Assembly: GCA_030679895.1 (NCBI GenBank)
Contig: JAUXSN010000047.1
Coordinates: 1,328-65,327, forward strand
Length of the DNA stretch: 64,000 nt
Reading direction: 5' to 3'
Source of the DNA: Candidatus Moraniibacteriota bacterium
GTDB lineage: Bacteria > Patescibacteriota > Minisyncoccia > Moranbacterales > UBA11712
Shown: positions 1,959-42,808 of the stretch, one piece after another
Layout: each line of letters begins with the position of its first letter
Numbering within the stretch: the first letter of the stretch is position 1
Translations under genes and position numbers: made by a program
The notes under the pieces: generated by a model
Database searches by the model: none
Told to the model about the DNA's origin: nothing
The model's input: the letters and a program-made list of their open reading frames with translations, nothing else

Positions 1959-3143
1959 CTATTCCCCTATAGCCAATATAACCACGGTTTCGTTATGAAA
2001 ACATGAAAACGGACGGGATACATCTCCGCCAAGAGGCGCCTGCTCTCCATATGTATAGAAACCGATAAGCGGCACATCCGTTCCCAGTATCGATTGGATA
2101 GCCCTTATTTCCTTTCCGGCATCCTGGCCGAAAAGCTTGCTTCGAGCGATACAATTAAAGACGATAATGGCTTTGGGAACAGCTCCTTTAAGTTGGGCTA
2201 GAGTTTTTTTGGCGGCGTCTTTCGCGGCGATAATGGCGTCATCCTTGCTTCCGATCATAAGCCGCACTTCAGAGCCCTCGGGAATCTCGGCCGCGCAGGT
2301 TATCGCTCCTTTCTCATCCACGGTGATCGGATCCCGGATAAGCAGTTCTTCGCTGCCGTCGACACTCATGCCCAAGGGATAAGTAATGGCCATAATAGCC
2401 AGCGGCTCGGTCTTGAGATCCTCCGCTTTTTTCCCAAAATATTCTTCGTAGATAGTTACTGCCGGTTTTCCGTCGATTTCTTCCAGCACCGCTCCATGGG
2501 ACTTGGTAACTTTTTTGGAAAGTCCAATAGGCGTCCATCCATGGCGAACGCCGACCCCCAGAGAAAATTTTCCGGAAAATCCGACTCCCACAATCGAGGA
2601 CGAAAGTACTTGATTAAGATAATAAACGAAAGTCTCCTTGAACATAAAGTCATCCCCCGCCGCTCCGCCGAAAATAAGAAAATTCTTTCCCAAAATGTCC
2701 TGGACTCCTCTTACGATATCGGCTCCGTTGCCGGTGAGAACATCAGTAAGCATGATAAGAGAGCTGATTTTATCTGACGATTTTTGGGATATGTCCTTAG
2801 CCAGAGCCGCGCCTGCCTCCCGGGCGCCGGCGGAAATCAGGCCGCCGGTTCCGATGGTAAATTTAACGGCATTAGAACTGAAAGACATGACAGCCACCCC
2901 TCCTTTGTTGGCGCCTTCATTTGTAATTTCGCCGGCGTCGCTGCAACCGATTAGCGGAGCTTTTCCACTAGCTTCGTTTATGCCCCGAATCACTTCTTCT
3001 TGCTTAAGGCTGACCGAGGAAAAAGCAATGACGAGATCCGGTTTTTTGGAACCCGCTCTTTTTATTGCCAGGCTGCAGGCTTCATAACCCGCCTGATAAC
3101 CATCTTTGTTATTACTTAGACCTACTCCTGCTTGCGTTGCCAT
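1959..3143 (-). CDS. FIST-domain signal transduction protein
   Basis: 394 aa. The N-terminal FIST_N-like region (DLVIAFSSVS...PLIGCSDAGEI) and C-terminal FIST_C-like end (FGGAAGDDF...PLIGFYTYGEQAP) are recognisable. Confidence 0.7.
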   Translation of the reverse strand: MATQAGVGLSNNKDGYQAGYEACSLAIKRAGSKKPDLVIAFSSVSLKQEEVIRGINEASGKAPLIGCSDAGEITNEGANKGGVAVMSFSSNAVKFTIGTGGLISAGAREAGAALAKDISQKSSDKISSLIMLTDVLTGNGADIVRGVQDILGKNFLIFGGAAGDDFMFKETFVYYLNQVLSSSIVGVGFSGKFSLGVGVRHGWTPIGLSKKVTKSHGAVLEEIDGKPAVTIYEEYFGKKAEDLKTEPLAIMAITYPLGMSVDGSEELLIRDPITVDEKGAITCAAEIPEGSEVRLMIGSKDDAIIAAKDAAKKTLAQLKGAVPKAIIVFNCIARSKLFGQDAGKEIRAIQSILGTDVPLIGFYTYGEQAPLGGDVSRPFSCFHNETVVILAIGE

Positions 3144-3238
3144 AGAAGTTGTGCGTCGAATAATCGCTGTTTCCTGAAAAAATCAAACAGCGAAATCCGG
3201 CATGTTAATGTTTTTATACTCATTATTAATTAAAAAAT

Positions 3239-7279: not shown

Positions 7280-8398
7280 TTATACTAATTTGAGATTCGC
7301 GTCCGCCTCCAGATTTTTCCAATTATTATCGAATTTATTTTTATTCTTTGCCAGTTTATATTGATAATGCCCGGCTACGGCGATCATGGCGGCATTATCC
7401 AGCGAGTAGCCGGCAGCCGGCAACTGGTATTGGGAGTTTGGCAAAAGTCTTTTTATCGCTTCGCCAAGTTGTTTTCTTAACTCCTTGTTGGCCGAAACGC
7501 CGCCGCCGAGAAGAATGGTTTTAGGCTTATATTTTTTTGCCGCCTGAACCGTTTTATGGACCAAAACATCAATCACGGCCTGTTGGAAATCATAGCATAA
7601 AGCTGATTTTAATTTTACGCTTTTCAGTATTTTCGGATTATCCCGAATAGTATAGAGAACGGCTGTCTTGAGACCCGAGAAAGAAAAGTCCAGGTTTTTG
7701 GAATTTATCATCGGCCTCGGCAGTTGGAAGGTTTGACCTTGAGGAATTTCCCGATGAATAGTCGGGAAAGGGAAAGGTCGAACCTTGAATGATTTTCGGA
7801 ATTTATCTGCGATAGCGGATACAATTGGACCGCCGGGATACCCCAATCCTAGCATTTTTGCCACCTTATCAAACGCTTCTCCCGCCGCGTCATCGAGCGT
7901 CTGTCCGACAATTTTATAATCCAGATGTTTCTTCATCAAAATCAACTCCGTATGCCCTCCAGAAACGATAAGCGCCAGAACCGGGAATCTTATTTCCCCA
8001 ACATCGGATGTTAGGCTAAGCCGGTCGATAAAATTAGCATAAATATGACCGGATATATGATGAACGCCAACCAGCGGTTTTTTCCAGGCATACGCCAAAG
8101 CTTTAGCGGCATTCGTTCCAATGAGCAGAGCCGGAATGAGTCCCGGCCCCTGGGTGACCGCTATCAAATCGATATTCCCTGAAGAAATTTTGTTTTTCTT
8201 CAAAAAGCCCCGGAGCATCACAGGCAGATTTTTCAAATGTTCGCGAGCAGCCAAATTCGGAACCACCCCGCCGAAAGGGGCGTGGACTTTTGTTTGAGAT
8301 GAAACAAGGCTGTCAATCACCGAGAATCTATTTCTCGAAACATTCACCAGGGCGACGGCCGTATCATCGCAGGAAGTTTCAACGGAAAGAATACGCAT
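7280..8398 (-). CDS. tsaD: tRNA N6-adenosine threonylcarbamoyltransferase TsaD (Kae1/Gcp family)
   Basis: MRILSVETSCDDTAVALV..., GGVVPNLAAREH, HHISGHIYANF, LALIVSGGHTELIL. Start is moved to MRILS (ATG at complement 8396-8398). The ORF-track N-extension to 8506 is a read-through of an upstream repeat copy. The gene also contains an in-frame 61-nt palindromic element at 7728-7788. Confidence 0.9.
   Translation of the reverse strand: MRILSVETSCDDTAVALVNVSRNRFSVIDSLVSSQTKVHAPFGGVVPNLAAREHLKNLPVMLRGFLKKNKISSGNIDLIAVTQGPGLIPALLIGTNAAKALAYAWKKPLVGVHHISGHIYANFIDRLSLTSDVGEIRFPVLALIVSGGHTELILMKKHLDYKIVGQTLDDAAGEAFDKVAKMLGLGYPGGPIVSAIADKFRKSFKVRPFPFPTIHREIPQGQTFQLPRPMINSKNLDFSFSGLKTAVLYTIRDNPKILKSVKLKSALCYDFQQAVIDVLVHKTVQAAKKYKPKTILLGGGVSANKELRKQLGEAIKRLLPNSQYQLPAAGYSLDNAAMIAVAGHYQYKLAKNKNKFDNNWKNLEADANLKLV
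7728..7788. repeat. 61-nt near-perfect palindromic element (family A), in-frame inside tsaD
   Basis: AAGGTTTGACCTTGAGGAATTTCCCGATGAATAGTCGGGAAAGGGAAAGGTCGAACCTTGA. Outer arms AAGGTTYGACCTT/AAGGTCGAACCTT, inner hairpin TTTCCCGAY-GAATA-GTCGGGAAA. Translated as KVRPFPFPTIHREIPQGQT. Confidence 0.9.
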
Positions 8399-8441: not shown

Positions 8442-8502
8442 AAGGTTCGACCTTGAGGAATTTCCCGACGAATAGTCGGGAAAGGGAAAGGTCGAACCTT
8501 GA
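8442..8502. repeat. second copy of family A palindromic element, intergenic between hup terminator and tsaD start
   Basis: 59 of 61 nt identical to the copy at 7728-7788. Confidence 0.9.
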
Positions 8503-12507: not shown

Positions 12508-13266
12508 ATGAAAGACGAAAAAAAATACAAAAGCGAGCCCTTCTTCATGAATGGTAATAATGGGATTGGCATTTTATTGTTCCATGGCTGGTCTTCTCCG
12601 CCTGATGAATTTTTGTCGCTCGCGAAATATCTCAATTCTTTCGGCTACACTGTTTCTGCCCCCCTACTCGCCGGACACGGGACAAAGCCGGAAGATCTTC
12701 TAGGCGTGACTTGGCAGGAGTGGATGCAAGATTCCCAAAAATATCTTGGCGATCTGAAGAAGCAAACACCTCGAATTTTTGTCGGAGGGATTTCGATGGG
12801 AGGAAATTTGGCGATGCTTCTGGCTGAAGATGAAAATGTCGCGGGAGTGATCACTATGGGCGCTTCAGTCAAATTTCACTTTCAAGTTTTGGTGAAAATA
12901 GGCCTTTTTTTTATGGGACTGACAAAAACCTACAGGAAGAAATACTATCCCCCGTGGGTGAGAAAAAAAATGGGCAAGCACGATGTTTATCCCTATTATC
13001 CCGTCAAGAGCGCCAAGGAAGTCGTGAAGCTCGCAGAATACACGCAAAACAATCTTTCAAAAATCAGAAAGCCCATACTCATTATGCAGTCGACCACCGA
13101 CCACCTGGTTTCCCACAAATCGCCAAAGATGATTTATGACGGCGTCAATTCCGAAGTAAAAAATATTTTTTGGGCGGAGAAAGCCTATCATGTTTTTATA
13201 AACGGCGAGGGAAAGGAAAAAGCGTTTGAAAAGATAAGAGAATTTATTTCGCGGATTATTTCCTAA
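12508..13266 (+). CDS. alpha/beta-hydrolase, carboxylesterase-like
   Basis: ILLFHGWSSPPDEF, nucleophile elbow GISMGG, and a C-terminal His region. 252 aa. Confidence 0.75.
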   Translation: MKDEKKYKSEPFFMNGNNGIGILLFHGWSSPPDEFLSLAKYLNSFGYTVSAPLLAGHGTKPEDLLGVTWQEWMQDSQKYLGDLKKQTPRIFVGGISMGGNLAMLLAEDENVAGVITMGASVKFHFQVLVKIGLFFMGLTKTYRKKYYPPWVRKKMGKHDVYPYYPVKSAKEVVKLAEYTQNNLSKIRKPILIMQSTTDHLVSHKSPKMIYDGVNSEVKNIFWAEKAYHVFINGEGKEKAFEKIREFISRIIS

Positions 13267-13308
13267 CATTCAATGTTAGGAGCACCTAACATTCAATGTT
13301 AGGGTGCT
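13262..13308. repeat. two tandem 19-bp perfect palindromes CCTAACATTCAATGTTAGG (13262-13280, 13285-13303) nested in AGCAC...GTGCT
   Basis: Exact palindromes. They overlap the esterase stop (TAA at 13264-13266) and end 10 nt before the AGGAAA Shine-Dalgarno of the GT4 gene. Confidence 0.9.
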
Positions 13309-13318
13309 AGGAAATACA

Positions 13319-14527
13319 ATGCGCATAGCCATCTTCACTAACAACTATCTTCCAAATCCCTACGGCGTTTCGGGGTCTGTCGAAAGTTTCCGCAAGGAAT
13401 TCGAAAAATTGGGCCATGAGGTTTATGTGTTCGCGCCACATTGGAAGGGATTCATTGATGAATGGAAGCTAAACTTCCACGATGGAAGTTTAGCTTCCAA
13501 GAGCCCTCGTGTTTTTCGTTACCCTTCCTTTGAAACAAATGTGAAAATAAGGTTTCCTTTGGCAATCCCCTATTCCGGGAAAATTGATAAAATTTTAGAA
13601 GATTTGGATCTGGATATCATTCATTCCCAACATCCGAATCTTCTCGGAAGCGCCGCGATGAAGTGGGCAAAGAAAAAAAATATTCCCCTCGTCTTCACTT
13701 GGCACACGCTTTATGACCAATACGCGCATTTCGCGCCTTTTGTCCCGCGGCGCATCGCCGCATGGTGGACGATCCGCAACGCGAGAATTTACGCCAACCG
13801 GTGCGACGCGGTAATCACGCCCACGCCGTCAGTGATCGAAATAATCAGAAAATGGGGCGTAACAAATAAAAATATCACGGCTATTCCGACGGGGGTGGAG
13901 GAAAATCAATTCGCCGATCCCGATCGGAAAAGCATAAGGGAAAAATATAATATCCAGAATAAAGAAGTTCTCTTAATCTTATTTTCACGGCTGACGGCAG
14001 AAAAAAATGTCGAGTTTCTTCTCGGCTACGTGATTGAAATTTTGAAAAATAATCCAAAGGCAAAATTTTTGATCTGCGGCGAAGGAGATCTGCGAAAAAA
14101 ACTGGAAGAGCAAGCTTCGAAAAGCGCCGCGGCAGAAAAAATATTTTTCGCCGGTTTGGTTCCGGATGATATCAAGAAAAATTATTTTTCTGCCGGGGAT
14201 ATTTTTGTTTACGCCTCAAAATCGGAAACGCAGGGAATGAGTCTCACCGAGGCGATGTACACTAGTCTTCCGATTGTCGCGGTTCGGGCAACCGGAGTGC
14301 AAGATATTGTCGAAGACGGCAGAACGGGATTTTTGGTTTCGGAGGATAAAAATGAATTTCAAACCGCGGTGGAAAAATTGATTGATAACGAAAGCTTGCG
14401 GAATAAATTCGGCGAGGAAGCGAAGCAGGTGGCAAGAAAAAAATATACTTCTTTAGTTTGCGCAAAAAAAATGCTTGAAGTTTATAATAATGCAATAGAA
14501 ACAAGAAAAGGTACCTTATTAAAATAA
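13319..14527 (+). CDS. glycosyltransferase family 4 (GT-B, group 1)
   Basis: MRIAIFTNNYLPNPYGVSG... GT4 N-domain, C-terminal EGDLRKKLEE...GLVPDD... and the E-x7-E region. Start chosen at the ATG with an AGGAAA SD. The ORF-track start at 13304 is a GTG inside the palindrome. Confidence 0.85.
   Translation: MRIAIFTNNYLPNPYGVSGSVESFRKEFEKLGHEVYVFAPHWKGFIDEWKLNFHDGSLASKSPRVFRYPSFETNVKIRFPLAIPYSGKIDKILEDLDLDIIHSQHPNLLGSAAMKWAKKKNIPLVFTWHTLYDQYAHFAPFVPRRIAAWWTIRNARIYANRCDAVITPTPSVIEIIRKWGVTNKNITAIPTGVEENQFADPDRKSIREKYNIQNKEVLLILFSRLTAEKNVEFLLGYVIEILKNNPKAKFLICGEGDLRKKLEEQASKSAAAEKIFFAGLVPDDIKKNYFSAGDIFVYASKSETQGMSLTEAMYTSLPIVAVRATGVQDIVEDGRTGFLVSEDKNEFQTAVEKLIDNESLRNKFGEEAKQVARKKYTSLVCAKKMLEVYNNAIETRKGTLLK
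13464..13498. repeat. 35-nt palindromic element (family B) in-frame inside the GT4 gene: GGAAGCTAAACTTCC-ACGAT-GGAAGTTTAGCTTCC
   Basis: Two 15-nt hairpin units. Translated as WKLNFHDGSLAS. A close relative sits at 32973-33007. Confidence 0.9.
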
Positions 14528-14647: not shown

Positions 14648-15208
14648 ATGAAAATCCTCCCCCGCAAATTCTATTCCCGCCCTACATTGAAAGTCGCCCA
14701 GGATCTCCTCGGTTGTTTTCTTGTCCGCAAATACCGCGGAAAAATATGGCGCGCCATGATAACCGAAACCGAAGCCTATGTCGGCGAGAAAGATCTGGCC
14801 TGCCACGCTTCAAAAGGAAGAACTCCAAGGACGGAAGTGATGTATGGCGAGCCCGGCCACGCTTACGTCTATATGATTTATGGCATGTATCATTGTCTCA
14901 ACATCGTGACCGAAAAAAAAGATTTCCCCGCCGCGGTTTTGATACGCGCAGTGGAAATTATAGATAATCCCCCTCTCCTTAATAAGGAGAGGGTTGGGGT
15001 GAGGTTAAACGGCCCCGGAAAACTTTGCAAATTTCTGAAAATAGACAGGAAACTCAATAAATGGGATCTGACAAAAAAAGATAAATTATGGCTGGAACAC
15101 CGTGGCTCAAAAATTAAGCTGGATAAGATAAAAAAGTCTAAGCGTATAGGCATTGACTACGCCCAACACTGCCGGGAATCTTTGTGGCGGTTCACTTTAA
15201 ATTCCTAA
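14648..15208 (+). CDS. mpg: DNA-3-methyladenine glycosylase (Mpg/AAG family)
   Basis: ITETEAYVGEKDLACHASKGRTPRTEVMYGEPGHAYVYMIYGMYHCLNIV and NGPGKLCKFL match the Mpg fold signature. 186 aa. Confidence 0.85.
   Translation: MKILPRKFYSRPTLKVAQDLLGCFLVRKYRGKIWRAMITETEAYVGEKDLACHASKGRTPRTEVMYGEPGHAYVYMIYGMYHCLNIVTEKKDFPAAVLIRAVEIIDNPPLLNKERVGVRLNGPGKLCKFLKIDRKLNKWDLTKKDKLWLEHRGSKIKLDKIKKSKRIGIDYAQHCRESLWRFTLNS
14969..15006. repeat. 38-nt palindromic element (family C) in-frame inside mpg: CCCCCTCTCCTT-AAT-AAGGAGAGGG-TTGGGGTGAGGTT
   Basis: Perfect 10-bp hairpin plus a conserved 3' tail. Translated as NPPLLNKERVGVR. Second copy at 29417-29454. Confidence 0.9.
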
Positions 15209-17765: not shown

Positions 17766-17826
17766 AAAGCTAAGCTTTTCCCTTACTCGCTATTCGCTCG
17801 CAATTCCTCAAAGCTTAGCTTTTTTA
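17766..17826. repeat. pair of mutually inverted 13-nt palindromes AAAGCTAAGCTTT / AAAGCTTAGCTTT(TTT) downstream of the pilus operon
   Basis: Copies at 17766-17779 and 17810-17826 share the AGCTTAGCT core with the family B element. The second is followed by a T-run and overlaps the stop of the 106-aa gene. Confidence 0.7.
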
Positions 17827-22656: not shown

Positions 22657-24045
22657 TTATGGAACTGGCGTTAGGACCATTTCGATTTCTTTTTGGGTGA
22701 GTTGGTTGATTTCAATCGATCCGGAATAATTATCATAACCGCTGGCTGTCACTTCGATACTGTACGGTCCCGAGATCATTGCCACCGGCGGATCCAAATT
22801 CGGCGGGAAATAAACTCTTCCCGAGTTTCCCGTCGTGAGAGTTTGGTCAAAATCAGTTCCATTATAAACGCGAACGCTGGCCCCGCTAATCGGCTCATCG
22901 GTGATCGGATTTTTGACAGTGGCAATGAGAGAGTTGATACTGTTGTCTACAACAAGCAACGTCACCCCAAGACTTTGAACCGGCGAGAGAGAGAAATGAA
23001 GGAGCGGCGCCTCGGTTCCGATAAGAGTATATCCTGATTCAGTGAAATCAACCGTATAATTTCCAGGCGACATATTTTCCAGAACCAAGTTTCCACCGCT
23101 GTCGGTCGAAAGGTCTTGATCGCAATTGAAAACCGATTGCGAAGGAGTGTCTCTTGTCGTTCCGAGAATCCTTCCTCCCTTCAGATGAAAATGCATACTG
23201 GGAACCAAGTTGCTGTTGAGGTCTTCAGAGGTGATGGTTATTGTCCCAGTCTGGTCGGAAATGATGGATTTGCTACTCAAGCCTCCTTCCTCAACTGAAC
23301 CATGGATGTCCGTCGGATCATAGGCCGTCGCGGGATAAGGGGGCAGCGTGGAAACACTTTCATAAGAATCTTTAGAAGTGCTAATTTCATAATTTCGGTC
23401 GCCCGAGGGCATCCCAGCCAACAAAATGCTTCCCGTCGAATCAGTTTGCAGGGTGATATCAACTTGTGGGTTGGAATGACTGTTTACAATGTGCGCTTCG
23501 GTTCCTGATATTCCCTGGCCGGTGCTGTCGATCACATTTAAAACAAAAGTTCCTCCTCCGCTTTCGTTTTCAACGCCATTGGGAACAAAACGCGAAACAA
23601 GAACCACCCCTCTCCCAAATTTTATATCTCCCCAGGTCACTTCGATTCTCGCTTCTTTATAGTCTCTTGAAACCTTGTCATTGGGAGTTCCCCCTGCCAC
23701 TCCATCCAGAGAGTCATCAATATAGATTATTGTCGTTCGCACATTGAATTTTTGGTTGCTTTTCCAGACCGTTTCGTTTTGGGGCAGAACCCCGCTGGGA
23801 ACACCGTCTTGGGTGCCAATATCGCTGTAAGGCATATTACGAACAATTTCCATTTTTTCGTTGGCCAGTTCCGTAGCCGCTACCCGATGCTTGGATCGAG
23901 CTATCGATTTCAAACCTGCATTAAAGGAACCGTATATCGTTACGGTTACTATTGAAAAAATAAAAATCGCCGCAACAACCTCCAAAATCGAGAAGCCTTT
24001 TTTCCCAAAGTTTTGCGCTTTTAGCTTTAAGTTTTGAGTTTTCAT
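22657..24045 (-). CDS. minor pilin-like protein (PilV-like prepilin N-terminus, about 420-aa beta-rich extension)
   Basis: Leader ...KKG, then FSILEVVAAIFIFSIVTV with Glu at +5. Long Ser/Thr/Gly-rich repetitive C-terminal domain. Confidence 0.65.
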   Translation of the reverse strand: MKTQNLKLKAQNFGKKGFSILEVVAAIFIFSIVTVTIYGSFNAGLKSIARSKHRVAATELANEKMEIVRNMPYSDIGTQDGVPSGVLPQNETVWKSNQKFNVRTTIIYIDDSLDGVAGGTPNDKVSRDYKEARIEVTWGDIKFGRGVVLVSRFVPNGVENESGGGTFVLNVIDSTGQGISGTEAHIVNSHSNPQVDITLQTDSTGSILLAGMPSGDRNYEISTSKDSYESVSTLPPYPATAYDPTDIHGSVEEGGLSSKSIISDQTGTITITSEDLNSNLVPSMHFHLKGGRILGTTRDTPSQSVFNCDQDLSTDSGGNLVLENMSPGNYTVDFTESGYTLIGTEAPLLHFSLSPVQSLGVTLLVVDNSINSLIATVKNPITDEPISGASVRVYNGTDFDQTLTTGNSGRVYFPPNLDPPVAMISGPYSIEVTASGYDNYSGSIEINQLTQKEIEMVLTPVP

Positions 24046-28476: not shown

Positions 28477-30111
28477 TCAGTGCCCGAAGAAGCCTCGGGC
28501 GAGTTTGTCGGGGATTTGAATGAGAGTCGCACTTTTATCCGCGCAAAGTTTTTGGATTTCGCCATCATTGACGGAACCGGAAGTGGCAAAAATAGCCTTA
28601 ATTCCCGCATCGATCAGGACTTCAGGAGCGTCGGAAAAGGGGAAAAAGCTGTCGCTCGCCGCTACCGCGCCTTCTGATTCATGGCCGGCGTCTTTGGCGC
28701 GCTTGATGGCGAGCTCGCAGCAACCCACCCTGTCCTGCTGGCCAACCCCGTTTCCGATAAGTTTTCCGTCTCTGACTAAAGTTATCGTATTTGAATTTGA
28801 AGTCGCTGAAATCGCCCAGGCCAGGAGTATTTCAGATTTATTTTTTTCATCTATCTCGCCCTGAATTCTAATTTCCGGATGGTTGTAGTCTAAAACAAAA
28901 GTATAATTCGGCTGAGTTAGAAACCCTCCACGGACATAACGGAGTCTCTTCGTAGTATCGAAATTATTTTTATTCAAATTTTCCAGCGCCGGATTAACAA
29001 TAAAACGGCATTTATCTTTTTTGCGCCTCGAAAGCTCCAGCGCTTTTTCTGAAAATCCGGCTGTCACGATTCCGTCCAATAATCTTCTTTTTCCATTTTC
29101 CATTAAATGCGTAAGTAGTATTTCCGCTTCAGCCTCGTCAAAGTCAAAATTAAACATCGAGAGCCCCCCGAAAATGGCCCGCGGATCGCCTTCGACGACT
29201 TTTTTGATGACTTCAATTTTATCGTCGCCGTAGCTCGCCCCGCAACAATTGCCGTGCTTTACCGCCACCCCATAATATTTCGCGGAAACACTATTTATTT
29301 CGAACACCGCCGCAATATGCGTCAAAGTCTGAAGCATGCGGTCAATGTCGCAGATATTATTATAACTCGGCGCCATTTCAGTGAGAACTTTGAATTTATC
29401 AAGAGCCAGCGAATCACTCCCTCTCCTTGACAAGGAGAGGGTTGGAGTGAGGTTTGAATATAGTTTTCCCGGCGTTTGATAAGCGTTTTCGCCATACAAA
29501 GTTTCAGCAACCTGCTCACCAACTGCTCCGTTATACTTTTCTTTTGAATGAAATTTTGCCGACTCCAGGCAATATTTGGAAATAACGTATTCCGCTTTCG
29601 CCGCCAGCTCAATCCTTTCTTCCTTTGAAATATCGCCATTATTTTTCAGCTTCTTAACCACTTTTTCCCTGTCGCTCGGATCACAGATAACAATCCTTCC
29701 GCCTTTGGCCGCGGATCGGATCATAGCCGGTCCTCCGATATCTGTCGCTTCAATTACTGTTTCATAACTCGCATCCGATTTTGCAATCGCGTCTTCCAGC
29801 GGATACAGATCAACACAAACCAGATCAATAAACGGTATTTTTAGTTTTGCGAGCTCTTCCAAATCTTCCACAACTTCCGGCCTTGCCATGAGCCCGGCGT
29901 GAATTTCCCGCGAAAGCGTCACCACCCGATGGCCAAGAATAGCCTTTCCTCCCGCAATCTCCGAAACATCTTTAGCTTTTATTCCGTGCTCCGCCAAATA
30001 TTTCGCCGTCCCGCCCGAAGAAATAATCTCCCAGCCCAAATCAACCAAATTCTTGGCAAACTTTTCGATGTCTTGCTTATTGTAGACTGAAATTAATGCG
30101 GTTTTTTTCAT
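28477..30111 (-). CDS. purH: bifunctional AICAR transformylase / IMP cyclohydrolase PurH
   Basis: N-terminal MGS-like domain (MKKTALISVYNKQDI...SSGGTAKYL), then the AICARFT domain. 544 aa. Contains the family C palindromic element in-frame. Confidence 0.9.
   Translation of the reverse strand: MKKTALISVYNKQDIEKFAKNLVDLGWEIISSGGTAKYLAEHGIKAKDVSEIAGGKAILGHRVVTLSREIHAGLMARPEVVEDLEELAKLKIPFIDLVCVDLYPLEDAIAKSDASYETVIEATDIGGPAMIRSAAKGGRIVICDPSDREKVVKKLKNNGDISKEERIELAAKAEYVISKYCLESAKFHSKEKYNGAVGEQVAETLYGENAYQTPGKLYSNLTPTLSLSRRGSDSLALDKFKVLTEMAPSYNNICDIDRMLQTLTHIAAVFEINSVSAKYYGVAVKHGNCCGASYGDDKIEVIKKVVEGDPRAIFGGLSMFNFDFDEAEAEILLTHLMENGKRRLLDGIVTAGFSEKALELSRRKKDKCRFIVNPALENLNKNNFDTTKRLRYVRGGFLTQPNYTFVLDYNHPEIRIQGEIDEKNKSEILLAWAISATSNSNTITLVRDGKLIGNGVGQQDRVGCCELAIKRAKDAGHESEGAVAASDSFFPFSDAPEVLIDAGIKAIFATSGSVNDGEIQKLCADKSATLIQIPDKLARGFFGH
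29417..29454. repeat. second copy of family C palindromic element, in-frame inside purH (TCCCTCTCCTT-GAC-AAGGAGAGGG-TTGGAGTGAGGTT)
   Basis: 33 of 36 positions identical to the mpg copy. Translated on the minus strand as NLTPTLSLSRRG. Confidence 0.9.
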
Positions 30112-32127: not shown

Positions 32128-33123
32128 TTAACCAAACGACTCATCATATGCAACCCCGGGCGGAAATATTTCTTTTGATTTCTTTTTATATTCTTCGTAT
32201 ATTTTCACCCCCTGCGGCTCCGGCAAAAAAATTAGATTATCGTCCGTTGCTTCGATATATGCGCCCTCCTTTTTGGTTAACGGATTGCGCGAAATTCTTA
32301 TGATTTGCTTTTGCTTTAGCCAGGCTTCCATTATATCGCCTCCCAGAAAATTTATCAAGGTCTCTTTGGTTTTTTGAATAAGCCGGCTTATCTTGCTATG
32401 TTCCGTATAATATTTGGCTGGCTTCAGTTGCGGCATTTCCCAATTCGGCTTGAATTTATTGATCCAGCCGGCATTTGTCCCGCAGAATTTTTGAAAAACA
32501 TTAAATCCAAAAATGGGATATACAAAGCTATATTCGTTCGCCCCAAATAAGTCTTGGCGCTGGATTTCAAGGCTCCCGGTCGTGATAAAGTAGTTTAGGC
32601 AGATCCGATTTTTTATTCTCTTTCCATATCGCCGCTTGCTAAGCAGATGCACAACTAACGTAACCAGTAGCCGCCCGGTAAATATTCTTCCTTTTTCTAG
32701 TGCCACAAAAAAATCAATGTCGCTGCTTTGTTCCGGGTTCTTCATCGCGAGAGTTCCTGTCACCGCGACCATCCGGACGAACGGGACAAAGCGCAACCAC
32801 CAAGCCACTCGCTCCGCAATTTTGAACTTCATGATGGAATTCTTGTCGTTTTGGATTCTCTTTCCGACTAAACTCTTCCGCCCTTTCAAAAAGTAAAAGC
32901 CGCGAAATTCTTCGATGTGCTTTCTTAATTCTTTATTCTCTAGCGTTTCGATAATATTCCCAAGCGTGCAATGGAAGCTTAGCTTCCCCCGTGGAAGCTT
33001 AGCTTCCACGATCAAATATTTCCAAAGTTCGAAAGAAGTTAAGGGATGATTGAGGATGTCGCAGTAGGTAATCGTATGAAGTATATTTTTAGAAAGCTGA
33101 GATTGCACAAACGTTAAGATCAA
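32128..33123 (-). CDS. nucleotidyltransferase-fold protein (Pol-beta superfamily GS/GT...SDID motif), function unknown
   Basis: 331 aa. VAVTGTLAMKNPEQSSDIDFFVAL fits the minimal nucleotidyltransferase signature. Occupies the slot upstream of groEL. Contains the family B palindromic element in-frame. Confidence 0.45.
   Translation of the reverse strand: MILTFVQSQLSKNILHTITYCDILNHPLTSFELWKYLIVEAKLPRGKLSFHCTLGNIIETLENKELRKHIEEFRGFYFLKGRKSLVGKRIQNDKNSIMKFKIAERVAWWLRFVPFVRMVAVTGTLAMKNPEQSSDIDFFVALEKGRIFTGRLLVTLVVHLLSKRRYGKRIKNRICLNYFITTGSLEIQRQDLFGANEYSFVYPIFGFNVFQKFCGTNAGWINKFKPNWEMPQLKPAKYYTEHSKISRLIQKTKETLINFLGGDIMEAWLKQKQIIRISRNPLTKKEGAYIEATDDNLIFLPEPQGVKIYEEYKKKSKEIFPPGVAYDESFG
32973..33007. 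repeat. second copy of family B palindromic element (GGAAGCTTAGCTTCC-CCCGT-GGAAGCTTAGCTTCC), in-frame in the nucleotidyltransferase-fold gene
   Basis: Two identical 15-nt hairpin units. Translated on the minus strand as VEAKLPRGKLSF. Followed by ACGAT, as in the spacer of the GT4 copy. Confidence 0.9.
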
Positions 33124-33210
33124 AACTTAAAGCGCAAAGCGGAAAATCACAGCGTAAAGCTCGAAGTTTTTTTATTTTTGCGTTTTTGTTTTGCGCTTTT
33201 AGCTTTGCGC

Positions 33211-36033
33211 TTAGCGCATATAGCGCGCTGTCCACGTCTTCGCTCTCGCCAATTCCTTCGGCGTTCCCTCAAAAACGATCTCCCCGCCTTCATCTCCTCC
33301 CTCCGGACCAAGTTCGATTGCCCAATCCGACGCCTTGATCACATCCGGATTATGCTCGACCACCAGAACGGTGTTTCCTTTTTCCACCAGCTCGTCCAGA
33401 ATTTTGAGAAGTTTCGCCACGTCGTCAAAATGGAGCCCCACGGTCGGCTCGTCGAGAATATAGAGCGCTTTTCCGTCCGTGCGCCGCGCCAGTTCCGTCG
33501 CCAGCTTCACTCTTTGCGCTTCCCCGCCGGAAAGATTCATGGCTGATTGGCCCAGTTTCAAATATCCAAGGCCGACTTCATTGAGCTTTTTTAATTTTTC
33601 AGCCACCAACGGATAATTTGAGAAAAATGTGAGGGCGTAACTGACACTCATATCCAGCACCTCCGCGATATTGACTCCCCTGTATTCAATATCGAGAGTT
33701 TTCTGGTTATATCTTGTTCCCCGGCAGGCTTCGCAAGGAGTATAAATATCCGGCAGCAGATGCATCTCAATCTTTTTCTGGCCTTCCCCCTGGCAAATCT
33801 CGCAGCGTCCGCCCTTCATATTGAAACTGAACCGGGAAGGGGCATAACCGCGGTTTTTCGCTTCCGGCATTTCGGAAAATATGTCCCGAATATGCGAAAA
33901 TATTCCCGTATAGGTCGCCGCATTGGAACGCGGCGTGCGTCCGATAGGCGACTGGTCGATACTGATGACTTTTGAAATATTTTCCACGCCCCTTATCCTC
34001 TTATGCTTTCCCGGCAAGTCTTTGCTCCGATAAAAATGCCGGCTCAAAGCTTTGGCCAGAATATCCTGCATAAGGGAACTCTTTCCGGAACCGGAAACTC
34101 CGGCCATCACCACCAGTTTCCCGAGTGGAATTGAGACATTGATATTTTTGAGGTTGTTTTCCTCCGCTCCTTCAATCGTCATTTTTTTTCCGTTTCCAAT
34201 GCGATATTTTTTCTTCCTGAAAACTTTTCTCTTTCCCTTGAGATATTCTCCGGTTGAGGTCTTGGAGGAAAATATTTTTTTGTATGTTCCCGAGAAAATA
34301 ATCTCCCCGCCTTCTTCTCCGGCTCCCGGACCCATATCGATTATCCAGTCCGCCGACCGCATTATTCGGGGATCATGCTCAACCACAATAACGCTGTTTC
34401 CTTCTTTTTTGAGTTTTTGCAAAACTTCGATCAGCCTTTCCGTGTCTCTTTCATGAAGACCGACGGATGGCTCGTCCAGCACGTAAAGAATTCCCGTGAG
34501 TCCGGATCCCACTTGCGTGGCAAGGCGCACCCGTTGCGCTTCCCCGCCGGAAAGAGAATTGGCGTTTCGGGATAGCTTGAGATACCCCAAACCGGCTTCG
34601 CAAAGGTTCTCGATCGTATTTTCCACTTCCCTGAAAATTTCTCTTACTATATTTTTCTCGTTTTCGGAAATATCGGTTTCTTTTTCTATGGCCAGAAATT
34701 TATTTTTCAGGTGGTCGAGGCTGATATTGGACAGATCATCGATTGACATTCCGTTTATCAATACTGCCAGGGCTTCCTCGCGCAGTCTTTTTCCGCCGCA
34801 TTTGGGACAAGTTTTGATTATCATATACTTTTCGATTTCGCTTCGGATATATTCCGTGCCGGCTTCTTTGTATTTTCGCTCTAGCATCGGAACCACCCCT
34901 TCAAAACCAATCGCGCCGCCAGCCCCTCCTCTTTCTTCCCCCGATTTTTCTCCAAAAATGATTACTTCCAGCGCTTCAGGTTTTATTTTTTTCAGCGGCT
35001 GATTCAGGGAAAATCCGTATCTAGAAGATAATTTCTCCAAATTTTTGAGGTGCCCATTTTGGCCCAGATTGCGCGTACCCATATTTTTCCAGGGACGGAT
35101 CGCTCCTTCGTTCAGGCTCAAATTCCGGTTGGGAATGACCTGGTCTATATCGACATCAAGCTTTGTTCCGAGTCCCGAGCAGGCTGGGCATGATCCTTCA
35201 GGATTATTGAAGGAAAAAAGGCGGGGAGTTATTTCTTCAAGGATAAAATTGCAATCCGGACAGATCAGATATCGGTTATATTTTCTGTCTTCCATTTCGT
35301 CTTCGAAACGGATAATGACTTCTCCCCGGCCCAGCTTCATAGCCGTTTCTATTGAGTCTATCAGCCTTTCCCGATCCTGGAATTTATTGTTTATTGTTAT
35401 CCGGTCAATCACCAGCTCCGCCGTTTTAGCGGCGTTCAAAAGATCATCCTGCCGCATCGCATCCCTTATGGCCATTATCTTGCCGTCCAGCCTCGCTCTG
35501 GCATATCCCAGCTGATTGAATTCAGTTAGCATTTCCCGGACATTTTTTCCGGATCCGGAAGGCTCCGACAGGATTGCGATTTGCGCGTTCCTATTTTTCG
35601 CTTCCGCGATGATCTCGTCCGCCACTTCGTTTGATTGTTTTTCATTCAGTTCTTTTTGGCATTTCGGGCAATGCGGTTTTCCGATTTTCGCGTACAGAAT
35701 CCGGAGATAATCATAGACCTCCGTCATGGTGCCGACAGTTGAGCGCGGACTGCGATTCACATTGGTCTGGTTGATCGCGATGACGGGAGAAAGATTTTCA
35801 ATTTTGTCCACTTCCGGCTTTCTGGCTACATTCAAGAACTGCCGGGCATAGGCCGATAAATTTTCCACGTAGCGCCTGTGTCCCTCGGCAAAAATCGTGT
35901 CGAAAGCCAGCGACGATTTCCCCGATCCCGAAAGTCCGGTGATGACCACCAGCTTGTCGCGGGGAATTTTGACATCAACGTTTTTCAGATTATTCGCCCG
36001 CGCGCCTTTCACTATAAGATGCGATTTGTCCAT
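33211..36033 (-). CDS. uvrA: excinuclease ABC subunit A (UvrA)
   Basis: 940 aa. Two ABC ATPase modules ([14 protein letters not shown]; [10 protein letters not shown]), zinc-finger cysteines, and LSGGEAQR signature motifs. Confidence 0.95.
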
Positions 36034-36132
36034 ATTTTATCCGCCTCCCTCTTCTTAATAAGGAAAGATGAGCGAGGTTGTTGAAATGAGGTAAAAAGAA
36101 AACAGCTAATTGCTAATTGTATAGTAGAAAAT

Positions 36133-42775: not shown

Positions 42776-42808
42776 AAAAAAGCCTGGTCAATTGACCAGG
42801 CTTTTTTT
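42776..42808. terminator. bidirectional rho-independent terminator: A5-AGCCTGGTCAATTGACCAGGCT-T7 (perfect palindrome)
   Basis: Lies immediately after the trpS stop. Confidence 0.85.

Follow-up and report, generated by a model that had tools for sequence, protein, structure and literature searches.

The window analysed here, a stretch of 64,000 nucleotides from a Candidatus Moraniibacteriota bacterium (contig JAUXSN010000047.1), contains two copies of a short palindromic DNA repeat, referred to below as Family B, both of which lie in frame in protein-coding genes. Copy 1 (13463..13499, no strand assigned) is a perfect palindrome, TGGAAGCTAAACTTCCA-CGA-TGGAAGTTTAGCTTCCA, with a 17-bp stem and a 3-nt loop. 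Its core at 13464-13498 reads GGAAGCTAAACTTCC-ACGAT-GGAAGTTTAGCTTCC, that is, two 15-nt units (13464-13478 and 13484-13498) on both sides of a spacer (13479-13483). The second unit is the exact reverse complement of the first, and a flanking T and A extend the stem to 17 bp. As single-stranded DNA (ssDNA), this copy is predicted to fold at −18.6 kcal/mol (z = −10.4). Copy 2 (32972..33008, likewise without an assigned strand) is organized as TGGAAGCTTAGCTTCC-CCCGT-GGAAGCTTAGCTTCCA, with one central T:T mismatch in the stem; its core at 32973-33007 reads GGAAGCTTAGCTTCC-CCCGT-GGAAGCTTAGCTTCC, the units being located at 32973-32987 and 32993-33007 (predicted ssDNA fold −15.8 kcal/mol, z = −5.6). 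The two copies make up the longest inverted-repeat pair of the window. When the 15-mer was searched with up to 3 mismatches, 9 strand-matches were detected in the window against 1.86 expected, and none of 100 shuffled sequences reached 9. Both copies were found exactly where the original prediction, made from the window alone, had placed them, in unrelated genes on opposite strands.

The natural unit of Family B is a palindrome of 17-19 nt, (T)TGGAAGCTWAGCTTCCA(A). Each 15-nt unit of copy 1, when taken alone, carries a mismatch; the two departures from the consensus thus restore pairing in the long hairpin but not inside a unit. Several copies have likewise changed in a compensated manner, with an intact long stem next to unit hairpins that show a mismatch or wobble at positions 6/10. 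The earlier description as tandem 15-nt hairpin units understates the structure, since the conserved feature is the long hairpin formed between them. A 20-nt unit ending in ACGAT, GGAAGCTTAGCTTCCACGAT, had also been suggested, and this proposal had to be abandoned: the ACGAT beside copy 2 represents host codons (ATC GTG), which are present as well in P0121, an element-free ortholog with 87% identity. As a spacer, ACGAT/ATCGT is the most frequent 5-nt sequence within Family B (5/22). The TTGAT located upstream of both window copies was considered as a target motif and rejected, being host sequence that is not conserved in orthologs. Restriction-site content (AAGCTT, and AGCT in the unit) was discarded as an explanation, since variants lose the sites yet keep the palindrome.

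The gene carrying copy 1 (13319..14527, plus strand) codes for a GT4-family glycosyltransferase of 402 amino acids (Pfam Glyco_transf_4 and Glycos_transf_1), which is 100% identical to the Candidatus Moranbacteria protein P0001. The doublet is read in frame as (E)WKLNFHDGSLAS, and the predicted peptide string across the element is ...FIDEWKLNFHDGSLASKSPR.... Compared with the empty orthologous site, the window gene contains an insertion of 39 nt or 13 codons (13460..13498, plus strand), encoding EWKLNFHDGSLAS at residues 48-60. DNA alignment with the empty-site ortholog P0003 (locus L017) revealed these 39 additional bases as a clean insert. The site could be anchored in 99 orthologs: it is short and empty in 89, five (the window protein, P0004, P0005, P0009 and P0035) carry a Family-B-type segment at exactly this site, and five have another insert slightly downstream. 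The versions in P0004 and P0005 are diverged, with their arms still complementary; that of P0035 is the canonical one of 34 nt, for which a different frame is used (LEAKLPFGSLAS). In an AlphaFold model of the window GT4 protein (mean pLDDT 84.9), values below 50 appear only at residues 48-61 and 75-78; the insert is thus predicted to be the sole long disordered segment, in a surface loop. Other sporadic insertions occur in the same protein family. In P0017, P0034, P0108, P0110 and P0118, other residues (ACPNQNPAKRDFGR, ACPPQDSSAKNFGR or the like) are inserted in frame 3 residues downstream of the Family-B site, and IHPVKS...QFNRV and PACNAARSTAGR are found elsewhere in the protein.

Copy 2 lies in frame on the minus strand of a gene for a conserved protein of the candidate phyla radiation (CPR), located at 32128..33123 (minus strand), and encodes VEAKLPRGKLSFH. 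The name of nucleotidyltransferase-fold protein given to this host stands only as a label: no Pfam family was matched, and "predicted nucleotidyltransferase" is the JGI annotation of some of its orthologs. Its orthologs differ at the site: P0148 has nothing there, P0121 (87% identical) has the loop VARGDATEKDK, which is unrelated, and P0127 carries Family B. Long SLVIPTEAKRSGGI...GMTKKS inserts were also noted among the orthologs of this nucleotidyltransferase-like protein. More filled and empty pairs in other genes were obtained by BLAST of host proteins against the DNA of the collected loci, together with orthologs in which the same site carries a decayed or different hairpin.

For the distribution of Family B, an exact-pattern scan (GGAAGYTWARCTTCC, 3-7 nt, GGAAGYTWARCTTCC) was performed on about 185,000 species genomes, on metagenomes and on viral contigs. 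The pattern was detected at 16 loci of the species genomes and at 59 metagenomic loci; once duplicates were removed, 65 distinct copies remained, most of them from CPR lineages. No copy was found in the viral contigs. The genome matches belong mainly to CPR bacteria, including Saccharibacteria, Paceibacterota, Yanofskybacteria, Niyogibacteria and Giovannonibacteria, and three copies were located in a metagenome-assembled genome (MAG) labelled Bdellovibrionales. Intergenic, differently built copies were found in Alloprevotella and Cytophagaceae MAGs. There (L004 and L007 from the Alloprevotella MAG, L006 from the Cytophagaceae MAG), GGAAGCTTAACTTCC / GGAAGTTAAGCTTCC units form arrays with 6-7-nt spacers, three in a row in Alloprevotella and mostly within short open reading frames (ORFs) or between genes; these arrays may represent an unrelated family of REP elements (repetitive extragenic palindromes) matching the pattern.

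The spacer between the units was 4 nt in 44 and 5 nt in 23 of 79 pattern matches, and the most frequent flanks, TT...AA, extend each unit to 19 nt and the doublet to a perfect palindrome of 38 nt. Paired units prevail (174 paired vs 8 solo). Identical sequences of 34-38 nt are present in more than 30 unrelated genes and in several CPR classes. The hosts confirmed by Pfam are PGK, ribosomal protein L3, CysRS (cysteinyl-tRNA synthetase), YchF, TsaD, LigA, DUF763 and RNase H; those recognised by eye from translations are ArgRS, UvrC, UvrA, XerC/D, NAD synthetase and a NiFe hydrogenase subunit. In addition to the 2 copies in the window, 4 strict copies were counted on one contig of 998 kb and 3 in one MAG of Saccharibacteria, and copies within one genome tend to be of one variant (4/4 and 3/3, respectively). 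Near relatives differ at one site while distant genomes have the same element. The proposal that the two copies belong to a single dispersed palindromic family is supported by the many more copies in public genomes and metagenomes and by peptide segments missing from most orthologs; the opposite pattern, no further copies and a peptide conserved in orthologs without the palindrome, was looked for and not observed. In the library that could be searched, no paper containing the Family-B sequence was found, and general literature searches returned only the comparators discussed below. As chimeric reads can make perfect palindromes, an artefact of assembly, adapters or amplification was considered. 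We regard its probability as negligible, because the element is present in independent NCBI, ENA, JGI and Logan assemblies, in frame and at orthologous positions across species, and because the copies show divergence and compensated changes.

Regardless of the strand of the host gene, the peptide encoded by the common forms is EAKLPxGSLAS or GSLASxxEAKLP. The A-centred unit includes TAA in one frame and the T-centred unit TAG in another. Owing to this placement of stops and to the symmetry of the palindrome, the A-N4-T and T-N5-A forms are open in only a single frame per strand and read as LEAKLPxGSLAS or GSLASxxEAKLP. The two window peptides are different because the rarer A-N5-T and A-N5-A forms have other open frames. 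All intragenic copies stay in frame and free of stops, and removal of the insert at the RNA level was rejected on this basis. The recurrence of the same peptide in many proteins may suggest selection for EAKLPxGSLAS itself, as a sorting, cleavage or binding module, with the palindrome being incidental. We find this highly improbable, since the window copies are read in different frames into different peptides, the GT4 segment is predicted to be disordered, some copies lie outside genes, and the hairpin is retained at orthologous sites that encode an entirely different peptide.

The persistence of the hairpin was analysed by alignment of 12 copies from three genes, CysRS, GT4 and the nucleotidyltransferase-like gene, 7 of these sequences being from the window or the pattern scan and 5 from protein homology. 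The 17-bp helix is 97.3% paired in this alignment, against 19-52% in slid controls; 8 of the 17 pairs have changed on both sides and none on one side only, and no G-U pair was observed among 187 cells. The unit hairpins are kept slightly less well than the long helix. Perfect hairpins are present also in orthologs found by protein homology and not by nucleotide pattern (L083, L084, L020 and L077). In L077, all five changes per arm are mirrored and the short unit hairpins are broken. Such strict Watson-Crick pairing points to a DNA-level constraint or a copying process.

The clearest example was a linker site of CysRS in Moranbacteria. Of 75 orthologs from the protein search, 26 have the potential there for a stem of 17 nt or more, which is above the 99th percentile of 1,588 control windows in the same proteins (a null of 1%), and these 26 cover at least 10 peptide families. 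The DNA confirmed different perfect hairpins at this site: TGGAAGTTTAGCTTCCA-CGA-TGGAAGCTAAACTTCCA in L043, TGGAGGTTCGACCTCCA-CGA-TGGAGGTCGAACCTCCA in L083 (protein 85% identical), TGGAGATTCGATCTCCA-CAA-TGGAGATCGAATCTCCA in L084, an in-frame doublet of a AAAGCTWAGCTTT variant in L086 from another Moranbacterium, and a GTAG-tagged unit of a family other than B, GTAGACGTCCGACGTCTAC, present twice in L085. No hairpin exists in L087 (protein 84% identical). At orthologous sites the peptide turns over fully, as in GGSTSTMEVEPP, GDSISTMEIESP and WRLDLHNGDPIS, while the hairpin stays. Codons for the same amino acid are identical in 86% of cases inside the element and in 57% in its flanks, a comparison biased by the fact that the CysRS orthologs used were found by nucleotide pattern. 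PTFNVG..TLNVG peptides, related to a different repeat family of the window, occur at the CysRS site as well. Along 628 kb of collected DNA, 115 hairpins with stems of at least 14 bp were counted, of which 69 belong to Family B; several of the others have the same two-unit architecture and are also in frame in genes. At one and the same RNase H site, L001 (279-321) has a Family-B doublet and L029 (1263-1296) an unrelated hairpin with a 20-bp stem, GCCTTACAAGGGCATCTTGT-AGG-ACAAGATGCCCTTGTAAGGC. The many different perfect hairpins at one site may reflect in-situ drift with arm correction, replacement by family members or reuse of a hotspot.

These observations bear on two explanations other than selfish spread. 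The hairpin could be beneficial for the host, being selected as DNA or mRNA structure at given positions of genes, for pausing of replication, transcription or translation or for mRNA decay, with a shared recognition factor. The frequency and diversity of hairpins at the CysRS site, the strong covariation, the codon identity with its ascertainment bias, and the variation of the hairpin at a given site of RNase H, of UvrA and of the transposase gene described below are in agreement with this model. Most orthologs, however, manage without the hairpin, as seen from the empty GT4 sites and the CysRS of L087, and the hosts are unrelated genes without a shared position or function. The absence of G-U pairs is unlike selected RNA helices, no Rfam family was matched (for the GT4 copy, an E-value search returned nothing but sub-threshold matches at chance level), and the association with a transposase is left unexplained. 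Taken together, a benefit for the host is unlikely as the main cause.

Alternatively, the palindromes might arise and stay perfect through template switching (quasipalindrome correction) without any mobility, and resemble each other by ancestry or convergence. The strictly Watson-Crick arms without one-sided changes look as if one arm had been copied from the other; the mirrored changes of L077 with its broken unit hairpins fit as well, and no target-site duplications were seen. Such an origin is nevertheless improbable, for it does not account for identical 34-38-nt sequences in unrelated genes and in several CPR classes, for close genomes that differ at a site while distant ones share the element, for the variant common within a genome, or for the units that flank a transposase gene. 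Arm correction may act as a maintenance step following insertion.

A candidate partner enzyme was detected in a related locus, L048, through two solo Family-B units that bracket the 5' part of its gene. The ORF at 2576-3211 of this locus carries the motifs YHIYNRG, NHYHF and YTKYFN..R.G.LFQG.FKS, and its product matches Pfam Y1_Tnp with 30 bits (cut-off 23). An exhaustive search yielded 15,614 cluster representatives of this Y1 family, the closest named ones being from Moranbacteria; the HUH motif, the Tyr and the Asn at Y+4 are invariant in 47 homologs. Neither the protein nor a two-sequence profile gave a meaningful match when searched against PDB chains. With the AlphaFold model of the protein (pLDDT 93.9), the top fold match was 4ER8 (E = 1e-6), ahead of the TnpA proteins of IS608 and ISDra2. 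The structure 4ER8 is that of E. coli TnpA-REP, a REP-associated tyrosine transposase (RAYT), bound to a REP hairpin (PDB 4ER8). A weak match of 130 residues in L001, obtained by tblastn with approximate IS608 TnpA and E. coli RAYT queries, was rejected as a GalT/HIT-type gene with an HPHSQ motif.

Three Family-B positions surround or interrupt the transposase gene of L048 (2549-2569, 2758-2778 and 3214-3251). The first unit is located 10 nt before the start codon and also provides the stop codon of the preceding gene, the second lies in frame inside the gene (NLEAKLP), and the third is a perfect 38-nt doublet 3 nt past the stop codon. In L053, encoding a homolog with 35% identity, the same three positions are filled by a different palindrome, TGGTCAACSTGSCAGGTTGACCA. 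Other homologs have Family-B-type peptides at the same internal site, including FGSLASKLASGS, KLSFGISRSLAS, EVRLPIGSLTS, GGSNSIMEVEPP and GGSTSLSEVEPP, and this site is enriched in hairpin-coding potential (19% vs 2.5%, p = 5e-21). The layout of L048 and L053 is the REPtron arrangement that defines REP-RAYT systems.

Considering that the copies are insertions, are dispersed, follow a clear frame logic and covary between their arms, and considering the layout of the two Y1 gene regions, we propose that Family B is probably a family of elements resembling REPINs (REP doublets forming hairpins), which has a RAYT-like Y1 partner and lies in frame in permissive loops of CPR genes. The element would be a doublet of a 15-19-nt palindromic unit, (TT)GGAAGCTWAGCTTCC(AA), folding into a 15-17-bp hairpin in ssDNA. 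The TnpA proteins of IS200/IS605 and E. coli TnpA-REP cut and rejoin single-stranded hairpin DNA. By analogy, the Y1 enzyme may recognise the ssDNA hairpin, cut and rejoin it, and thereby copy or move doublets in trans. As CPR genomes are nearly all coding, most landings would occur in genes, and the copies surviving selection after insertion would be those with a multiple of three bases and a stop-free frame in a permissive surface loop. That the copies are in frame and located in loops is what was observed; we infer mobilisation of the doublets by Y1, and the selection after insertion that explains the in-frame state. In the window, the outcome under this proposal is a 13-residue disordered loop in GT4 and a replaced loop in the conserved CPR protein. 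In the common forms, palindrome symmetry gives the same peptide in either orientation, and the peptide would be a by-product; the arms of a resident copy stay Watson-Crick complementary as its sequence drifts or as another variant replaces it.

Several observations weigh against the identification of Family B as a REPIN-like family with a RAYT-like partner. The best NCBIfam match of the L048 protein is the RAYT equivalog, at 21 bits against a cut-off of 80. A Y1 homolog was sought in the 64-kb window and none was found, so that the association is made by family, from related loci; it consists of two loci plus protein-level signals, and the units in and around the Y1 gene could in principle be ordinary insertions, since Family B lands in many genes. 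In the REP superfamilies described by Di Nocera et al. (2013, PMC3733652), one end of the stem-loop is marked by a conserved tetranucleotide, GTAG or CGTC, a defining feature that was seen near Family-B copies in only 4/65 (GTAG) and 2/65 (CGTC) cases. Instead of the extragenic location of REPs, 53 of the 65 distinct copies (82%) lie inside open frames of at least 450 nt, and the copy number is low, 2 in 64 kb and 4 strict copies per about 1 Mb vs hundreds for classical REPs. The apparent conservation of sequence across phyla is inflated, as the scans demanded near-exact units. No target-site duplication or conserved target motif was detected in the filled and empty comparisons of GT4, the second host gene and other genes, and the element is not simply added in UvrA and CysRS, where it takes the place of a similarly long segment.

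A variant of the proposal is that the hairpins are more than passengers: the REPIN-RAYT pair would be domesticated and vertically inherited, and its RAYT-like enzyme would both preserve and rewrite perfect hairpins in the DNA of essential CPR genes, at positions that do not change. Such an activity would account for at least 10 different perfect palindromes at one site among close relatives, and it would extend to a site inside the transposase gene itself. If so, the targets of the system would be coding sequences, and it might work at replication forks or on DNA that the cell has taken up, with host proteins that have evolved tolerance. We consider this variant rather doubtful, and prefer the REPIN-like family that spreads and is filtered after insertion.

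The window includes further repeats. Two inverted AAAGCTWAGCTTT units, forming a subfamily related to Family B, are located at 17766..17822 (17766-17778 and 17810-17822, 31 nt apart; no strand assigned) between two minus-strand genes, with a 13-bp stem and a fold z of −3.0. A relation between Family B and the palindromes at 17766-17826 had been inferred from a common core, and it is supported: the AAGCTWAGCTT core is real, and the unit CTAAAGCTWAGCTTTAG forms an in-frame doublet at the CysRS site of L086. A doublet of another family, CCTAACATTCAATGTTAGG-AGCA-CCTAACATTCAATGTTAGG, lies at 13262..13303 (no strand assigned), its two identical 19-nt palindromic units being intergenic and ending shortly upstream of the GT4 start codon at 13319 (fold z = −7.0); it has the two-unit build of Family B with an unrelated sequence. 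Related CCAACATTSAATGTTGG doublets lie within an open frame of 324 nt in L038 and one of 834 nt in L043.

A third family, CCCTCTCCTTAATAAGGAGAGGG followed by TTGGGGTGAGGTT, has copies at 14971-15006, in frame in the Pur_DNA_glyco gene 14648-15208 (PPLLNKERVGVRL), at 29419-29454, in frame in a 1662-nt minus-strand ORF, and at 36047-36082, decayed and intergenic, adjoining the uvrA start. In L008, from a Saccharibacteria MAG, the UvrC protein is interrupted by peptides of a similar kind (SPSPLLTKERGWGEV). A 61-nt repeat (7728-7788 and 8442-8502, copies 97% identical) is in frame inside the TsaD gene in one copy (FKVRPFPFPTIHREIPQGQTF) and at or upstream of the probable true start of TsaD in the other. 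The motif TTTTGCGCTTTTAGCTTT appears in inverted orientations at 24011-24037, 33120-33146 and 33183-33216, the latter two in the short spacer between the second host gene (start 33123) and uvrA. In the Saccharibacteria MAG CAZXFC01 (L008, L011 and L013), which has three Family-B copies, a repeat of about 25 residues, EHSQRDGARQAIRQQANMRV[LP]AK, is in frame in UvrC, TsaD and the start of a GT39-like gene. Two A/T-flanked 14-bp hairpins, at 42776-42807 (AAAAAAGCCTGGTCAATTGACCAGGCTTTTTT) and 56538-56570 (AAAGAAAAATCCCCTCTTTGGGGACTTTTCTTT), look like bidirectional intrinsic terminators.

The results point to a large, apparently undescribed branch of REP/REPIN-RAYT systems in ultra-small CPR/Patescibacteria, with palindromes lying mostly inside essential genes and being translated. 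This would account for sporadic insertions of 12-13 residues and recurrent peptides such as EAKLPxGSLAS in CPR proteins, which could confuse alignment, phylogeny and structure prediction, and would provide a natural experiment on the tolerance of proteins to selfish DNA. The 211-residue Y1 enzyme and the 38-nt hairpin (TTGGAAGCTAAACTTCCAATTGGAAGTTTAGCTTCCAA; unit hairpin TTGGAAGCTWAGCTTCCAA) form a compact pair suitable for testing. They also draw attention to the process by which the two arms stay strictly complementary while the sequence at orthologous sites turns over.

Among known systems, miniature inverted-repeat transposable elements (MITEs) are 70-300 bp in length, with terminal inverted repeats matching insertion sequences of the DDE type and with target-site duplications. 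Like MITEs, Family B is non-autonomous, has no coding capacity of its own and is presumably mobilised in trans; it differs in its length of 34-39 nt, in the absence of duplications in the filled and empty comparisons and in a partner of the Y1/HUH type. Coding palindromes are known from nematomorph mitochondria, in which perfect inverted repeats of up to 284 bp have both arms translated (PMC6649704). The strict complementarity of arms, held together with coding capacity, is common to both cases, but the nematomorph repeats are organellar, encode conserved protein regions in their arms and do not constitute a dispersed family of a single sequence.

The Rickettsia palindromic element RPE-1 is reportedly a selfish palindrome that has entered, in frame, a large number of unrelated and functional genes, often essential ones, at places that the fold of the protein can accommodate. 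It is about 100-150 bp long, encodes 30-50 residues and, to our knowledge, has no transposase partner. Family B likewise occupies structurally permissive positions, in frame, in unrelated functional genes, but is only 34-39 nt long and is hosted by CPR/Patescibacteria.

Intragenic REP dimers and the elements RPE-4 and RPE-6 were described for Rickettsia conorii, Opitutus terrae and Thauera, with uvrA and other repair genes as frequent hosts (PMC3733652). From the insertion into unrelated proteins, Di Nocera et al. (2013, PMC3733652) concluded that the peptide is unlikely to be under functional constraint. These elements and Family B are alike in being REP-type palindromes, often dimers, placed in frame in known proteins. 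Those described previously are tagged with GTAG or CGTC, encode a few tens of residues, form a minority of otherwise extragenic families and come from other phyla, whereas Family B is intragenic as a rule, with no more than 12-13 residues encoded per doublet.

Most of what is known of REP/REPIN-RAYT systems concerns extragenic repeats of Proteobacteria, the function of which is still under debate. In the library that could be searched, no report of REPIN or RAYT in CPR/Patescibacteria was found. Family B is unusual in being mostly intragenic and without the GTAG/CGTC tag; it also differs in being translated, in the few copies per genome, in its CPR/Patescibacteria hosts, in a Y1 protein scoring below the RAYT equivalog cut-off and in the hypervariable internal site of this protein, which itself hosts a palindrome. 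In agreement with the REP/REPIN-RAYT systems, Family B has short palindromic units, inverted doublets that form a longer hairpin, and dispersed copies, together with a Y1/HUH gene bracketed by cognate units, different homologs with different palindromes, and a predicted fold nearest to that of 4ER8.

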